35,112 nucleotides of DNA, taken from Pyrinomonadaceae bacterium (lineage in GTDB: Bacteria; Acidobacteriota; Blastocatellia; Pyrinomonadales; Pyrinomonadaceae). The first letter of the stretch is position 1, and every line of letters begins with the position of its first letter. The position numbers and the translations under genes are program-made. Under the pieces are notes generated by a model, which was given only the letters and a program-made list of their open reading frames with translations, searched no databases and was not told the DNA's origin. Shown here piece after piece: positions 3,487 to 35,112 of this stretch. The stretch is from contig DASTVU010000672.1 in the NCBI GenBank assembly GCA_035758935.1, positions 1 to 35,112 on the forward strand, read 5' to 3'.

Positions 3487-4702
3487 GCGATCGAAGACAC
3501 TCGCTGCCTGCCTCGTACTTCTGATTTGCGCGTGCAGTGTTAGCGCGCAGGAGAAAACGAAAAGGCTCGTCATTGCTGCGAGCACCGTTCTTGACGGCAA
3601 AGGCGGTGTCGTTCATAACACACGCATCGTTATTGAAGGATCGAAGATCGTTAGGATCGATCCGAAAGCCGGACCAGTCGACTACGATCTGCGCGGGTTA
3701 ACGGTGTTGCCGGGATGGATCGATAGTCACGTCCACATTACGTGGAGTTTCGGTCCCGACGGAAAAAACGCAGGCGCCGGAGGAACCTCACGATTTTTCA
3801 CCGAAGCAGCCGCCGCTAACGCAAAAGCGACATTGATGGCCGGTTTCACCACCGTGCAAAGTGTCGGCTCGCCAAACGATCTGCCGTTGCGTGATGCGAT
3901 CGCAAAAGGAACTCTACCCGGTCCAAGAATTCTCACCTCCGCGGAACCACTCATGGGCCGCGGCGATCAAACCGGTACCCCCGAAGAGATTCGCGCGTTT
4001 GTTAGAAAACAAAAGGAAGCGGGTGCTGACGTAGTCAAAATCTTTGCTGCCGGCAGTGTTCGGCGGCCGCAGATGTTGTTATCGCAGGAACAACTGAACG
4101 CCGCTTGTGATGAAGCAAAGAAACTGGGTTTGCGCACGCTTGTTCATGCTTACCAGGACGCGGTTGGCGCCGCCGCGCGTGCCGGATGTACGCAGATTGA
4201 ACATGGAACGCTTGCGAGCGACGACGATTTGAAGTTACTGGTCCAGAAAGGCGTATGGCTCGATCCACAGGCGGGACTGGTGATGGAAAACTATCTGCTC
4301 AATAAGGACAAGTTCGTCGGCACGCTGGGTTTTCCGGAAGAAGCTTTCACAGTCATCAAAGAGATTATTCCCTCGTATCACGCGTTTCTGAAACAAGCGC
4401 TGAAGGTTCAGGGTCTGAAGATCGTCTTCGGCTCCGACGCACTGGCCGGGTCGCACGGAAGAAATGCGGAGGAGTTTGTCGATCGTGTGCTTGACGGAGG
4501 TGTTGATCCGATGGCAGCTATGGTTTCCGCCAACTCACTTGGGGCAGAAGCACTGGGCATGGGAAATCAGATTGGGTCGATCGCGCCCGGCCTGGAAGCT
4601 GACATCATCGCGCTCGATGGCGATCCTTTAAAGGACATTACCGCGGTACGTCGCGTTGTGTTTGTGATGAAGGGCGGAGTTGTTCACAAAAACCCGCGCT
4701 GA
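3485..4702 (+). CDS. Secreted metal-dependent amidohydrolase family protein
   Basis: ORF 3398..4702 trimmed to ATG 3485 (MRSKTLAACLVLLICACSVSAQE signal peptide). GWIDSHVHITW metal-binding HxH motif. C-terminal ADIIALDGDPLKDI..VMKGG typical of the amidohydrolase superfamily. Confidence 0.85.
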   Translation: MRSKTLAACLVLLICACSVSAQEKTKRLVIAASTVLDGKGGVVHNTRIVIEGSKIVRIDPKAGPVDYDLRGLTVLPGWIDSHVHITWSFGPDGKNAGAGGTSRFFTEAAAANAKATLMAGFTTVQSVGSPNDLPLRDAIAKGTLPGPRILTSAEPLMGRGDQTGTPEEIRAFVRKQKEAGADVVKIFAAGSVRRPQMLLSQEQLNAACDEAKKLGLRTLVHAYQDAVGAAARAGCTQIEHGTLASDDDLKLLVQKGVWLDPQAGLVMENYLLNKDKFVGTLGFPEEAFTVIKEIIPSYHAFLKQALKVQGLKIVFGSDALAGSHGRNAEEFVDRVLDGGVDPMAAMVSANSLGAEALGMGNQIGSIAPGLEADIIALDGDPLKDITAVRRVVFVMKGGVVHKNPR

Positions 4703-15146: not shown

Positions 15147-15212
15147 AGCCACAGATTTACACGGATGGACACGGATTGTCTCTATCAGTGAAATCCGTGT
15201 AAATCCGTGGCT
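15147..15212. repeat. Palindromic element, CACAGAT/CACGGAT type
   Basis: agccacagatttacacggat(ggacacggat) ... atccgtgtaaatccgtggct. Arms differ at one position (cacagat against cacggat). Confidence 0.9.
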
Positions 15213-31766: not shown

Positions 31767-31814
31767 TCCACAGATTACACAGATTCTGTAAATCAATCTG
31801 TGTAATCTGTGGAT
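31766..31814. repeat. Palindromic element, CACAGAT type (perfect 20-nt arms)
   Basis: atccacagattacacagatt ctgtaaatc aatctgtgtaatctgtggat. Begins on the last base of the lexA stop codon. Confidence 0.92.
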
Positions 31815-31825
31815 AGAGGTTAGTT

Positions 31826-32116
31826 ATGTCGAGCGTACCAGTGAGTGAGATTGAGTTTCTTGGGTTTGCCCTCGGTGACTGTACTGTCGACCTGGACCAA
31901 ACCTCGGCGAAGTATCTGAGAGTAGTACACGGTACGGCGCTGGAACTCGCAATCCACAATCAGTTTGGCGCCGAGTTTGGCGGCTTCTGGTTGCTGTCTC
32001 CTCAAATCACTCAACTACGCCGTCTCCCCGAGTATTACTCCCCGGAAGAAGCACCACTCGTCGAATTCGCAATCGAAGCCTATCTCGCAGCTCAGATCCG
32101 CGAATTCAGCTTTTAA
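31826..32116 (+). CDS. Hypothetical protein (96 aa) downstream of lexA
   Basis: ORF track. GAGG 6 nt upstream of the ATG. Protein-like composition. Its stop codon overlaps the stop of the convergent EamA gene (TTAA). No family recognised. Confidence 0.5.
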   Translation: MSSVPVSEIEFLGFALGDCTVDLDQTSAKYLRVVHGTALELAIHNQFGAEFGGFWLLSPQITQLRRLPEYYSPEEAPLVEFAIEAYLAAQIREFSF

Positions 32117-33104: not shown

Positions 33105-33908
33105 TTAGCCGTGTGGTTGCGTCTTGATAATCGCGAACGCAGCACCCTGTGGATCAATCAGGATCGCAAAGCGTCCGACACCGGGAATATCGTCGGCCGG
33201 CTTCATGACTTGTGCTCCGAGCTCGGTGGCCTTTTGAACCGAGGCGTCGCAGTCATCGACTGAAAAGTACACCAGCCAGTGTGGCGGAACGGGTCCCATT
33301 TCGGGCATAAGCTTGTACACCCCACCAATTCCCGCACCGTCATTCAGGAAGAGGGTGTATGGGATAGGACTGTCACCGAAAGGTTGTCTGGTCCAGCCAA
33401 ACACGTTCGAATAAAACTCACCGGCTTTTTCCGGATCGTTTGTGCCGAGTTCGCTCCAGGTGGCAGCACCGGGCACTCCCCAGACTTCCGATCCTTTGTT
33501 ATCCATGGCTTGCCAAACCGCAAAAACGGCGTCGGTCGGGTCCTTAATAACGGCCATTCGGCCATAGGTAGCTACGTCGAATGGACCATTCATCACGGTT
33601 GCACCTTCGGCCTTTGCTTTTTCAACTTTCTCATCTGCGTCGGTAACCGCGACATAAGTCAACCAGTTAGGTGGGACTCCCTGCTCAACCATGTCGGGCA
33701 TCAACTTGTAAAGCCCACCGACATCTTTGCCATCGAGCTTCAGCATCGTGTAGACCATGTCTGGGCCCATCGGGTTGTCTTGAAACTCCCAACCAAAGAG
33801 TTGTGAGTAAAAACTTTTCGCGGCATCGGTATCGCTGGTGCTGAGTTCCACCCAACAAAAATTTCCGGGCTTGATTTCGGGGGTCTCTTGCATTCTTGCT
33901 TCGGTCAT
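33105..33908 (-). CDS. Two-domain VOC (glyoxalase/dioxygenase superfamily) protein
   Basis: Two tandem repeats of F.WVEL.T.D...A..FY...FGW........Y.......G...GG......P..W..Y..V.D. Confidence 0.85.
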   Translation of the reverse strand: MTEARMQETPEIKPGNFCWVELSTSDTDAAKSFYSQLFGWEFQDNPMGPDMVYTMLKLDGKDVGGLYKLMPDMVEQGVPPNWLTYVAVTDADEKVEKAKAEGATVMNGPFDVATYGRMAVIKDPTDAVFAVWQAMDNKGSEVWGVPGAATWSELGTNDPEKAGEFYSNVFGWTRQPFGDSPIPYTLFLNDGAGIGGVYKLMPEMGPVPPHWLVYFSVDDCDASVQKATELGAQVMKPADDIPGVGRFAILIDPQGAAFAIIKTQPHG

Positions 33909-34047
33909 TTCAATTAATCCCTCCTATCGTCGGACAAGTACATTGAGGCGCTTTTCAGCGACGTGGAAAACGGGGAGAAACTTTTTTCTGATTTTGGAAA
34001 GCGGATAATTTATCACTTTAGAGCGCGGCAAGAAAGGCAGGAAGAAA

Positions 34048-34112
34048 AGCCACGGATTTCACGGATGAACACAGATAAAACCATCCGTGTTCATCCGTGA
34101 AAATCCGTGGCT
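34048..34112. repeat. Palindromic element, CACGGAT type
   Basis: agccacggatttcacggatgaacac (34048..34072) against gtgttcatccgtgaaaatccgtggct (34087..34112). Arms differ by a single-T indel. Confidence 0.9.
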
Positions 34113-34119
34113 TACTTTT

Positions 34120-34165
34120 CTTTTAAAAACGAAATGCGCTGCTCCCAGCAAGCTGAAAGCAGCGC
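34120..34165 (-). terminator. Intrinsic terminator ending the candidate ncRNA
   Basis: Minus-strand RNA: GCGCUGCU uucagcuugcuggg AGCAGCGC followed by AUUUCGUUUUU. Confidence 0.7.
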
Positions 34166-34618
34166 AATCCGTTTTCCTACAGTTTGCCGAAGCTCCCTAT
34201 AGGATGGCAACTAAAGCATGTACACACTCAAGCTGCCAATTTGTATCCCGATGACCAACTGGCGGTCAGCCAATCGCCGGTCAGCACTCGAATTAGTTTC
34301 CCAATCCTCGCACCCTTGCGGGCACGGTGCCGTTAGGTTTTTGTTGTGGTGGCTTTTCCTCCACCGCCGATTACGCTCCGGCAACGAAGCTCAACTTTCG
34401 TTGAGCCGCTTTGCTCCCTTTGGCGGGTCCTTGCCTCCGGGTGCCATTCGTTTTTATTCGAATGGCTCGAGAAAGTCTCGCAACCTTCTCTAGCTAAGCC
34501 TTTCGGCTCCGATTAGGGCGTCAATAGAATCAACAGCCGCCTGTCTCTTCTCTCTCTCAGGCGTCACCGCCCGATTGCCGATCCCTTTCTCGGTCTCGAA
34601 GGCCGCAACCCTCGCGAC
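34133..34618 (-). ncRNA. Candidate large structured ncRNA (about 485 nt), class not recognised
   Basis: ORF-free on the minus strand. Bracketed by a promoter (34625..34653) and a terminator. At least 10 local hairpins. Loops read GNRA or UUCG only on the minus strand: GGCG-GUGA-CGCC (34560..34571), AGCC-GAAA-GGCU (34497..34508), GCUCAAC-GAAA-GUUGAGC (34389..34406), CCC-GCAA-GGG (34313..34322), GC-UUCG-GC (34186..34193). Also has an 8-bp GCCAUUCG/CGAAUGGC stem and a 17-nt polypurine tract. Confidence 0.5.
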
Positions 34619-34624
34619 AGGATG

Positions 34625-34653
34625 GTTATACTCCTACACTGTTTTTAGATCAA
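34625..34653 (-). promoter_or_regulatory. Candidate sigma-70 promoter of the ncRNA
   Basis: Minus strand: TTGATC (34653..34648), exactly 17 nt, TATAAC (30..25 of the 346xx block, i.e. 34630..34625). Lies just downstream of the HIT stop codon. Confidence 0.55.
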
Positions 34654-34666
34654 ATTTTTGTGTGTT

Positions 34667-35092
34667 TTATTTTTTGGTTTTCACGGCTGTAAGTATTTTG
34701 CTTTGCACTTCCCTCATTTCTTCATCGCTTTTGTATTTCGTTCGTGGCCAGAAAAAACCTTTCAAACCATCTTTTCTCCGACGCGGCACCACATGAACAT
34801 GCAAATGAGGCACGCTTTGACTCACGCGATTATTCATCGCGACAAAAGTTCCTTCAGCATCCATTGCTGATTCAATTGCAAGAGCTAGCAGTTGCGCTGC
34901 TTCGAAATAAGGTGCAACAAGTTTTGTCGGAAGTTCGCCGAGTGTTTCCACATGTTGTCGTGGTACAAGCAACGTATGTCCTGGAAACAAAGGACGATGA
35001 TCGAGAAACGCCACTGCGTTCTCGTCTTCGTAAACGACAGTTGCCGGCACTTCACCAGACACAATTCGACAAAACAGACATTTGTCATCCAT
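34667..35092 (-). CDS. HIT (histidine triad) family protein
   Basis: ORF 34667..35107 begins at a TTG; ATG 35092 (MDDKCLFCRIVSGEVPA) is preferred. Histidine triad VPHLHVHVVPR. Confidence 0.85.
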   Translation of the reverse strand: MDDKCLFCRIVSGEVPATVVYEDENAVAFLDHRPLFPGHTLLVPRQHVETLGELPTKLVAPYFEAAQLLALAIESAMDAEGTFVAMNNRVSQSVPHLHVHVVPRRRKDGLKGFFWPRTKYKSDEEMREVQSKILTAVKTKK

Positions 35093-35112
35093 AAAATCCG
35101 TTCTCAATCCAC

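Follow-up and report, generated by a model that had tools for sequence, protein, structure and literature searches.

We report here on a gene for a noncoding RNA (ncRNA) of about 494 nt, located at positions 34618..34125 on the minus strand of a 35,112-nucleotide stretch of DNA, which we refer to as the window (contig DASTVU010000672.1 of the Pyrinomonadaceae bacterium assembly GCA_035758935.1). We are highly confident that this RNA represents a genuine, independently transcribed, structured RNA family that is absent from Rfam 15. The best overall explanation of the data is a stand-alone gene for a structured ncRNA of ~494 nt, with one match per complete chromosome, which probably acts in trans. 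An earlier note, made from the letters of the window alone, had proposed at this place a promoter-to-terminator unit of ~485 nt on the minus strand, representing a novel or lineage-restricted class of RNA. The unit was borne out, at ~494 nt, with all of its features where the note had placed them.

Limits, promoter, terminator, and strand of the RNA gene

The promoter is of the sigma-70 type and reads TTGATC-N17-TATAAC at 34653..34625, exactly as the earlier note had it, and it is conserved across the family. Although family members are overall only 52-98% identical, the TTGA of the -35 hexamer and the TA..A of the -10 hexamer are conserved at levels of at least 90-97%. We binned the loci by nhmmer score into clades A (which includes the window), B, and C. 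Outside clade A, the -35 hexamer reads TTGACA or TTGACT, and in clade B the -10 hexamer reads TAGAAT or TAAGAT. A simple consensus scanner missed the promoter because its rule demands a T at the final -10 position. On the minus strand, a purine-rich stretch follows the promoter. At the other end of the gene, where a GC-rich hairpin and a U tract had been noted (34165..34120), a terminator scan found a stem at 34166..34135 with 14 pairs, 8 of them G-C, and a loop of 4, followed by TTTCGTTTTT. In the family alignment, this stem lengthens to 18 pairs, 13 of which carry compensatory changes. The 5' end of the transcript was placed 7 nt past the -10 hexamer and the 3' end within the U tract; neither was mapped.

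Alignments of the intergenic gap were near-invariant from the -35 hexamer to the U tract, and conservation collapsed right past the terminator. The length of the RNA across the family is 494 to 615 nt (median, 505 nt). At least 97% conservation was seen at 121 of the 494 window positions, 103 of which lie outside the 18-mer imposed by the genome scan described below. When the window was compared with four clade-A loci, nucleotide identity was 94-96% for the RNA and 82-87% for the flanking coding sequences. The RNA is under stronger purifying selection than the adjacent protein genes. In having its own promoter, its own intrinsic terminator, and a conservation independent of its neighbors, the locus agrees with a generic stand-alone bacterial ncRNA gene.

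The minus strand folded with a minimum free energy of -221 kcal/mol, compared to -170 ± 5.8 kcal/mol for dinucleotide shuffles (z = -8.8), whereas the plus strand reached a z of -3.7. Moreover, 48 close relatives displayed many one-sided changes from G-U to A-U or G-C, which become mismatches if read as the opposite strand. Since these changes pair only on the minus strand, we assigned transcription to this strand. Selection on a minus-strand RNA had already been argued for in the earlier note, and it is supported by the fold statistics, by the G-U changes, and by the sense fragments found in phage contigs (see below).

Covariation supports the fold

The earlier note had made its proposal depend on conservation and covariation in relatives, and both turned out to be strong. 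In the close set (48 relatives, alignment A4), the RNAalifold structure comprised 148 pairs, and 99.4% of the pair cells were canonical. Double changes were found at 25 pairs, compared to 10.3 ± 1.9 in column shuffles (0 of 500 reached 25) and 4 to 7 when the pairing partners were slid by 1 to 3 columns. The diverse set consisted of 147 unique full-length members with pairwise identities of 52-98%, aligned with MAFFT and fitted to no structure. Its 140 pairs were 92.7% canonical, compared to 37-45% in slid controls, and compensatory change occurred at 110 of the 140 pairs, compared to 83 ± 3 in shuffles (maximum, 90). Because the structure of the 147-member set came from the same alignment, we also scored a structure derived from clade A only on clades B and C; it was 80.2% canonical there, compared to 35-44% when slid.

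Long-range helices (UUGCCGGAGC/GCUUCGGCAA, CGGCA/UGCUG, and GCC/GGC) appeared in folds of 5 and 48 sequences. We rejected them, as their partners failed covariation or pairing in the diverse set. The local helices H23 and H16 hold in that set and replace the long-range pairings; the long-range rival of H16 was only 55-78% canonical at 2 of its 5 pairs.

Secondary structure of the RNA

As shown in Table 1, the model has about 24 helices. Starting from the 5' end, a hairpin is followed by a domain of five helices, a series of capped hairpins, a domain of three helices, and two more hairpin modules, and the structure ends with the terminator. The helices are joined by strictly conserved single-stranded linkers.

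Table 1. Coordinates of the RNA gene, its structural elements, and associated features (window positions unless a locus is named)
Feature	Position	Strand	Basis or remark
Predicted transcript	34125..34618	-	~494 nt; near-invariant block from promoter to U tract
-35 hexamer TTGATC	34648..34653	-	Sequence; TTGA at least 97% conserved in 147 members
-10 hexamer TATAAC, 17 nt past -35	34625..34630	-	Sequence; TA..A conserved family-wide
H1, 5' hairpin, 10 bp	34593..34618	-	6 pairs compensatory; 96% paired
Domain I: closing helix H2, inside it H3 and H4-H6, including polypurine tract	34510..34592	-	Compensatory pairs: H2, 7/8; H3, 5/7
H3 hairpin, GUGA loop	34574-34557	-	GGUGAC at least 97% conserved
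H7 hairpin, GAGCC-GAAA-GGCUU	34496..34509	-	100% paired; CCGAAAGG invariant in 147 sequences; near-invariant overall
H8 hairpin, 9 bp, GCGA loop	34469..34490	-	8/9 pairs compensatory in diverse set
H9 hairpin, GCCAUUCG stem, conserved loop AAUAAAAA(C)	34443..34466	-	6/8 pairs compensatory
H10-H13: internal-loop hairpin (AAGGACCC loop) and CGAAAG hairpin	34383..34441	-	Consensus fold, helix table
H14, GCCGG/CCGGC hairpin; H15, GGUGG-AGGAAAAG-CCACC	34348..34382	-	Most conserved block of the RNA
Linker ACAACAAAAACCUAA, single stranded	34333..34347	-	At least 90-97% conserved; unpaired in every consensus fold
Domain II: closing H16 (CGGCAC/GUGCUG), H17 (GCAA or UUCG loop), H18 (GAAA loop)	34282..34332	-	H17, 6/6 pairs compensatory
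H19-H20, linker GAUACAAAUU (34247-34238), H21-H22 with invariant GUGUACAUGC	34206..34280	-	Conservation and helix table
H23, long hairpin, invariant CUUCGG cap	34175..34204	-	8/9 pairs compensatory
H24, intrinsic terminator, 18 bp, plus U tract UUUCGUUUUU	34125..34173	-	Terminator scan; 13/18 pairs compensatory; U tract conserved
Upstream neighbor, HIT-family gene (context, not RNA)	34667..35107	-	Synteny in clade A only
Downstream neighbor, two-domain glyoxalase/VOC gene (context, not RNA)	33105..33908	-	ORF and loci of relatives
DnaA-box example, locus L199	~3690-3775		Upstream of RNA at 3851-4350; likewise in L194, L251, L214, L235, L137
RNA fragments in phage contigs L253 and L252	L253, 202-390; L252, 3-314	L253, +; L252, -	93-95% identical to family members

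The covariation is illustrated by an H1 pair that is GC in 71 sequences and CG in 67, and by H16, in which CG changed to UA in 7 to 9 sequences. Tetraloops on the minus strand read GUGA (34567-34564), GAAA (34504-34501), GCGA (34481-34478), GAAA (34399-34396), GCAA (34319-34316), GAAA (34300-34297), and UUCG (34191-34188), and every one of them caps a covariation-supported helix. In this respect the strand-specific GNRA and UUCG tetraloops of the earlier note stood; the UUCG inside GGCCUUCGAGAC (34596-34593), however, is not a loop but part of the 3' strand of the H1 stem. The 8-bp stem seen in the same interval corresponds to H9, a covarying helix in which 34466-34459 pairs with 34450-34443 and whose loop CGAAUAAAAAC is conserved at levels of at least 90-97%. 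The polypurine tract is also real, at 34558-34544, and is only moderately conserved.

The 18-mer at 34365-34348 was invariant in 48 of 48 sequences that had been collected with a different pattern, and H21-H22 contain an invariant self-complementary sequence, GUGUACAU, at 34227-34220. The 17-mer GGAGGCAAGGACCCGCC, within H10-H13, is conserved only in the window's clade. The loop of H17 appears to be merely a cap, since its switch between GCAA and UUCG goes together with the stem. Conversely, no variation is seen in the loops of H3 (GUGA) and H7 (GAAA), which suggests tertiary or protein contacts. These invariant loops and the conserved A-rich linkers are likely sites of such contacts.

Two universally conserved (AAN)3 tracts are found in the RNA, AAUAAAAAC in the loop of H9 (34458-34450) and AACAAAAAC in a linker (34345-34337). 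Judged by their sequence, these tracts and the U-tailed terminator resemble the features bound by the distal and proximal faces of Hfq, respectively. Two independent metagenome contigs, L007 (end at 4668) and L011 (end at 3643), stop inside the H9 palindrome GCCATTCGAATAAAAACGAATGGC, equivalent to window positions ~34458-34450, and many other contigs terminate at neighboring hairpins. We considered and rejected the idea that contigs ending in the RNA are the sign of a multicopy repeat, as ends at inverted repeats such as the H9 palindrome are typical assembly breaks.

The RNA does not encode a protein

The earlier note had found no credible open reading frame (ORF) in the region. The gap between the HIT and VOC genes measures 758 nt in the window, and three ORFs overlap the RNA, of 91 and 56 amino acids (aa) on the plus strand and of 57 aa on the minus strand. 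The note had also named a decayed protein gene as one of the findings that would undo its proposal, and a decayed or unrecognized gene for a protein or small peptide could be read into these ORFs and into the antisense ORFs (median, 91 aa) present in most family members. Their sequences do not behave as coding sequences. Variable sites were spread evenly over the three codon positions (23/24/26 for the 91-aa ORF, 13/9/11 for the 56-aa ORF, and 20/17/20 for the 57-aa ORF), i.e., without codon periodicity. The 91-aa ORF holds 14 gapped alignment columns and is intact in only 25 of the 48 close relatives, and the 57-aa ORF is intact in 24 of 48. Although 43 of the 48 keep the 56-aa ORF intact, this is weak evidence for coding because this ORF is located in the nearly invariant, most conserved block of the RNA. 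The purine-rich sense strand (G+A, 57.5%) makes long antisense ORFs an expected feature, and the substitutions obey base pairing. We conclude that the RNA does not encode a protein and give the protein-gene alternative practically no weight.

A family absent from Rfam and found in Blastocatellia

The species-representative genomes were scanned with the exact 18-mer at 34365-34348, and the metagenomes were scanned with the exact 17-mer from H10-H13. The RNA was present in at least 115 species-representative genomes (115 of the 120 matches listed), with nhmmer scores from 623 down to 84 bits, and on at least 73 metagenome contigs (73 of the 120 matches listed; the others were chance 17-mer matches). 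Among the matches listed, all 115 genome carriers are metagenome-assembled genomes (MAGs) with Blastocatellia or Acidobacteriota labels, except for two that are labeled just "bacterium." The labels include Pyrinomonadaceae, Pyrinomonadales, Blastocatellia, "Chloracidobacterium sp.," subdivision gp4, and unclassified Acidobacteriota. We rejected five listed genome matches outside the family (Aminicenantaceae, Acidiferrales, and others) as chance matches inside coding regions. One match each was found in three complete chromosomes (OY970193.1, OY970352.1, and OY969111.1), and one in the window. The MAG SMAG_U11525 contains two HIT-RNA-VOC copies (loci L168 and L239, on contigs DATNOG010000223 and DATNOG010000119); this double copy could reflect strain heterogeneity or misbinning instead of a true duplication.

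We then compared the RNA with known families. The 4227 covariance models of Rfam 15, which cover OLE, GOLLD, ROOL, HEARO, raiA, Acido-1, Acido-Lenti-1, RNase P, tmRNA, 6S, and the signal recognition particle (SRP) RNA, gave no matches at gathering thresholds in the whole window, in 3 close loci, or in the 18 most divergent loci. In E-value mode (E ≤ 5-10), the window and three diverged members gave only unrelated hairpin matches, at the neighboring palindrome or the terminator. Taking both modes together, no family match was obtained for the window and 23 related loci, so that reclassification as a known family, the outcome the earlier note had foreseen for an Rfam match, does not arise. ARAGORN detected no tRNA and no tmRNA in the window. 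By blastn, the plasmid collection gave one spurious 47-nt match and the phage collection none. No description was found in the full-text literature on Acidobacteria, Blastocatellia, or obg-linked structured RNAs, the coverage of which is incomplete, so that this is no proof of novelty. With no Rfam family and with the 115 genome carriers among the matches listed belonging to Blastocatellia, the expectation of a novel or lineage-restricted class agrees with the data. What is new is the RNA family; the operational kind, a large, highly structured bacterial ncRNA, is already known.

A highly divergent RNase P RNA, tmRNA, 6S RNA, or SRP RNA could in principle be missed by the Rfam models. The apparent single copy, the strong promoter and terminator, the housekeeping-like size, and the very high conservation would all suit such an RNA, and GGAGGAAAAGCC loosely resembles the RNase P P4 string GAGGAAAGUCC. 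However, the RNase-P-like string sits in a hairpin loop and not in a long-range P4 helix, and the 5' and 3' ends of the RNA are not paired with each other, leaving no P1 or acceptor stem. The strings GAGGAAAGUCC...ACAGAAxCCGGCUUA of RNase P RNA are absent, in line with the earlier note, which had looked for the hallmarks of RNase P and tmRNA and found none; the 5' end is a local hairpin and the 3' end a terminator. Neither ARAGORN nor Rfam, even at the permissive E values applied to the three diverged members, pointed to the tRNA-like domain and tag frame of a tmRNA. Finally, 6S RNA is a rod of ~180 nt with a central bubble, whereas this RNA has 494 nt, several domains, and ~24 helices. We therefore hold a divergent member of these known families to be very improbable.

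Gene neighborhoods differ among clades

In clade A (33 species genomes and metagenome contigs, including the window), the order is HIT-RNA-VOC-EamA on a single strand. The best relatives of the HIT protein are Pyrinomonadaceae (Acidobacteriota) MAG proteins with 83-96% identity, and their contigs all retain HIT, a gap of ~750 nt, VOC, and EamA. In clade B (62 genomes), rplU-rpmA is followed by a 300- to 450-nt gap, the RNA, and then obg, which starts 14 to 90 nt past the terminator in most loci. In clade C (20 genomes), a GNAT-like gene lies upstream, and either a NAD kinase gene or an opposite-strand gene lies downstream; in at least six loci (L150, L193, L206, L218, L245, and L179) the next gene is on the opposite strand, 3 to 200 nt away. 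Counted over clades B and C, obg is downstream on the same strand in 47 of 82 loci and the L27 gene is upstream in 45 of 82. Synteny with the HIT gene, which the earlier note had suggested checking, is thus kept in the window's clade, and the other clades have different neighbors. As the neighbors vary while all three clades retain the promoter hexamers and the terminator, we favor a stand-alone, trans-acting RNA.

These neighborhoods also bear on another possible role of the RNA, that of a giant leader or attenuator acting in cis. Its structured domain would then recognize a ligand or a protein, and its 3' hairpin would serve as the expression platform for the gene that follows (ancestrally obg, and VOC/EamA in the window). 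A leader would explain why a complex fold directly precedes the terminator, why clades A and B have a same-strand gene downstream, and why obg starts so close to the terminator in most clade-B loci. Nevertheless, a leader would remain in front of the same type of gene and could not be followed by a convergent one, and for this reason we rank the cis-regulatory reading low. The constant, coherent same-strand downstream gene of a riboswitch or cis leader was not found: the downstream genes (VOC, obg, and NAD kinase) are unrelated between clades, and several clade-C loci have an opposite-strand gene next. In the window, the spacer between the terminator and VOC is 216 nt long, poorly conserved, and contains a repeat element. 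The terminator itself is long (18 bp), and a crude helix scan found no conserved alternative partner for its strands, i.e., no antiterminator pairing. Moreover, an aptamer of 450 nt would be unprecedented. A leader thus appears unlikely, and on balance we consider it likely that the RNA acts in trans, as a folded RNA or as a component of a ribonucleoprotein (RNP).

Several other features of these neighborhoods were observed. The long gap between rpmA and the RNA in clade B (211 to 475 nt) showed little conservation besides the DnaA boxes and some T-rich runs, and no conserved ORF was seen in it. The clade-A neighborhood (L003, L004, and L008; beyond window position 35112 and around 31800-32100) is rich in DNA-repair genes, which encode a PolX-type polymerase with a PHP domain, an AlkZ-related protein, LexA, and uracil-DNA glycosylase; no link of these genes with the RNA was established. 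Just past the terminator of the window lies an imperfect palindrome of ~65 nt (34045-34115) with CACGGAT-like units (CCACGGATTTTCACGGATGAACAC...GTGTTCATCCGTGAAATCCGTGG). It is full length only in the window copy, and a related half-copy is found 19 kb away, at 15149-15172. The palindrome resembles a repeat of the repetitive extragenic palindromic or miniature inverted-repeat transposable element type and is the source of spurious microRNA-like matches in the Rfam E-value mode.

DnaA boxes precede the promoter in clades B and C

Upstream of the RNA promoter, loci of clades B and C carry 2 to 6 tandem DnaA boxes in the same orientation (TTWTNCACA, mostly TTTTCCACA), spaced by ~11 nt and located roughly 140 to 80 nt upstream of the predicted start. 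The boxes are followed by the conserved ACTTAAAGTATTTTCTAC and then by the -35 hexamer. Box density was 6.5/kb at -330..-30, compared to 0.05/kb elsewhere in the same loci, a 130-fold enrichment. Two or more boxes were present in 46 of 61 clade-B and 17 of 21 clade-C loci (score bins). Boxes were absent from 33 of 34 clade-A loci, including the window; in this clade, no more than ~45 nt separate the HIT stop codon and the -35 hexamer. Because the boxes accompany the RNA through two different gene neighborhoods, we assign them to the promoter of the RNA and not to obg. The array was also considered as an oriC and rejected: GC skew did not switch (+0.010 left and +0.017 right), and rplU-rpmA is transcribed toward the array.

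Clusters of DnaA boxes and DnaA-controlled promoters are known from sda or dnaA of Bacillus subtilis and from the datA/DARS loci of Escherichia coli. The tandem same-orientation TTWTNCACA boxes of clades B and C are similar to these, although the boxes are absent from the window's clade and the RNA site is no origin. We are not aware of any earlier report of a DnaA-box array preceding a gene for a large structured RNA.

Sense fragments in RNA phage contigs and the question of a mobile element

A scan of viral contigs (IMG/VR) gave two matches, L253 and L252, both in genomes of Leviviricetes, i.e., single-stranded RNA (ssRNA) phages. Both contigs encode a maturation protein, and L253 additionally encodes an RNA replicase beta chain (PF03431, E = 2e-73). 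The two RNA fragments (Table 1) differ from each other, and both have the same polarity as the phage plus strand. One is placed ahead of the phage 5' untranslated region, and the other, at the 3' end, is joined to a truncated ORF that occupies the replicase position. Leviviricetes phages have no DNA stage. Such contigs therefore derive from RNA, which argues that the sense strand of our RNA is expressed in nature. The junctions are either library or assembly chimeras or template switches of the replicase. The fragments also hint at Blastocatellia as hosts of these phages.

The same fragments could be taken to mean that the RNA belongs to a mobile element or phage, for example, as an omega-RNA/HEARO guide, as a remnant of a retron or group II intron, or as an RNA carried by ssRNA phages. 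The occurrence of the RNA in three different genomic contexts and the palindromic repeat that adjoins it in the window would be in keeping with such an origin. However, the phage contigs carry differing partial fragments at different ends, one of them on a truncated replicase ORF, which fits chimeras, and neither the phage nor the plasmid collection contained a credible match. No transposase, IscB/TnpB, reverse transcriptase, or integrase gene adjoins the RNA in any clade, and there are no terminal repeats. Within clade A, the divergence of the RNA tracks that of the neighboring genes. An omega-RNA or HEARO RNA would be flanked by an IscB, IsrB, TnpB, transposase, or reverse transcriptase gene; none of these flanks was found, and the window and the three complete chromosomes had a single match each. 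We judge a mobile or phage origin improbable.

DISCUSSION

The data presented here are best explained by a stand-alone RNA gene whose product would act in trans, either as the scaffold or active part of an RNP or as an RNA-only assembly, as large RNAs of the housekeeping or "ornate" type do. For most family members, transcription of the gene would be coupled to DnaA, and hence to replication and growth state, via the upstream box array; the window's own clade would have lost the boxes.

Several points weigh against this explanation. No gene co-occurs with the RNA across all three clades, and there is no known partner protein. In clade B, where obg begins 14 to 90 nt past the terminator, the RNA could double as a very long leader, or obg could need read-through; in either case, the terminator of the RNA must affect obg expression in this clade. 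A compact three-dimensional fold is an assumption, and a pseudoknot or long-range tertiary pairing was not demonstrated by pairwise covariation scores and a helix scan: the scores were swamped by clade-level phylogenetic signal, and the scan yielded only low-complexity CCGG-type matches. Both transcript ends are, for every family member, predicted from sequence. The phage chimeras could be artefacts, and they indicate presence of the RNA and not its abundance or function. The hosts found are MAGs throughout, and the best 120 matches in a search for a cultured host through Obg homologues were all MAGs. Lastly, exact-word scans give lower bounds, and the range of the family is larger than shown here and may extend beyond Blastocatellia.

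Among large bacterial RNAs, OLE RNA (RF01071) offers close parallels: a size of ~0.5 to 0.6 kb, many short helices with GNRA caps, invariant stretches among covarying stems, confinement to a single bacterial lineage, a location among same-strand genes, and a function that was unknown at discovery. The two RNAs share no sequence or covariance-model similarity. OLE RNA is found in anaerobic or extremophilic Bacillota and the new RNA in Blastocatellia, where it has no adjoining oapA-like partner gene and has its own promoter and terminator instead of being processed from an operon. ROOL and GOLLD are large ornate RNAs that form RNA-only homo-oligomeric cages (PMC12286853). The new RNA is also a large and intricate orphan, and its conserved loops could mediate RNA-RNA contacts, for example, through GUGUACAU; that it might oligomerize by analogy with these RNAs is pure speculation. 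It differs from them in having no covariance-model match, in not being tied to prophages or tRNA genes, and in being apparently vertically inherited, with one match per complete chromosome.

With the housekeeping RNAs (RNase P RNA, tmRNA, and 6S RNA), the new RNA shares one match per chromosome, a strong sigma-70 promoter, an intrinsic terminator, conservation above that of the neighboring proteins, and presence in every member of the lineage examined within the reach of the scans. It fails all tests for these families, however, and among the matches listed it occurs in one class, whereas they are universal. Riboswitches and leader attenuators similarly consist of a structured domain followed by an intrinsic terminator, with a same-strand gene downstream, as in two of our clades; the new RNA is 3 to 5 times larger than known aptamer domains, and the genes that follow it change between clades and in some loci lie on the opposite strand. 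By its length of 494 to 615 nt, its compensatory changes at 110 of 140 pairs, and its 121 positions with at least 97% conservation, the RNA belongs among the large ornate RNAs, an operational class that implies no homology.

Bacterial ncRNAs of more than ~400 nt with such conserved structure are rare, amounting to roughly a dozen classes. Earlier classes of large RNAs proved to be ribozymes (RNase P and group I and II introns), machines (tmRNA), or RNA-only architectures (ROOL, GOLLD, and OLE). The RNA described here is a well-supported new class in Blastocatellia, soil bacteria that are abundant yet poorly studied, and the 147 unique sequences with 52-98% identity already suffice for a reliable secondary structure. 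It is a candidate for an Rfam family, for cryo-electron microscopy, and for genetics in cultured Blastocatellia. Leads to its role are the DnaA boxes before the promoter, the ancestral position between ribosomal-protein genes and the gene for the Obg GTPase, and the signs of expression in metatranscriptome-derived contigs. As a tentative extension, the family could constitute a novel class of large functional RNAs, acting as a ribozyme, assembling from RNA alone, or forming the core of an RNP. In the ancestral state, DnaA would set its production, and its gene would lie between rplU-rpmA and obg. We know of no described counterpart of an RNA regulator that connects replication to ribosomes or growth in this way. 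If this possibility were true, the RNA would link the replication status of the chromosome to ribosome assembly or growth control in Blastocatellia.

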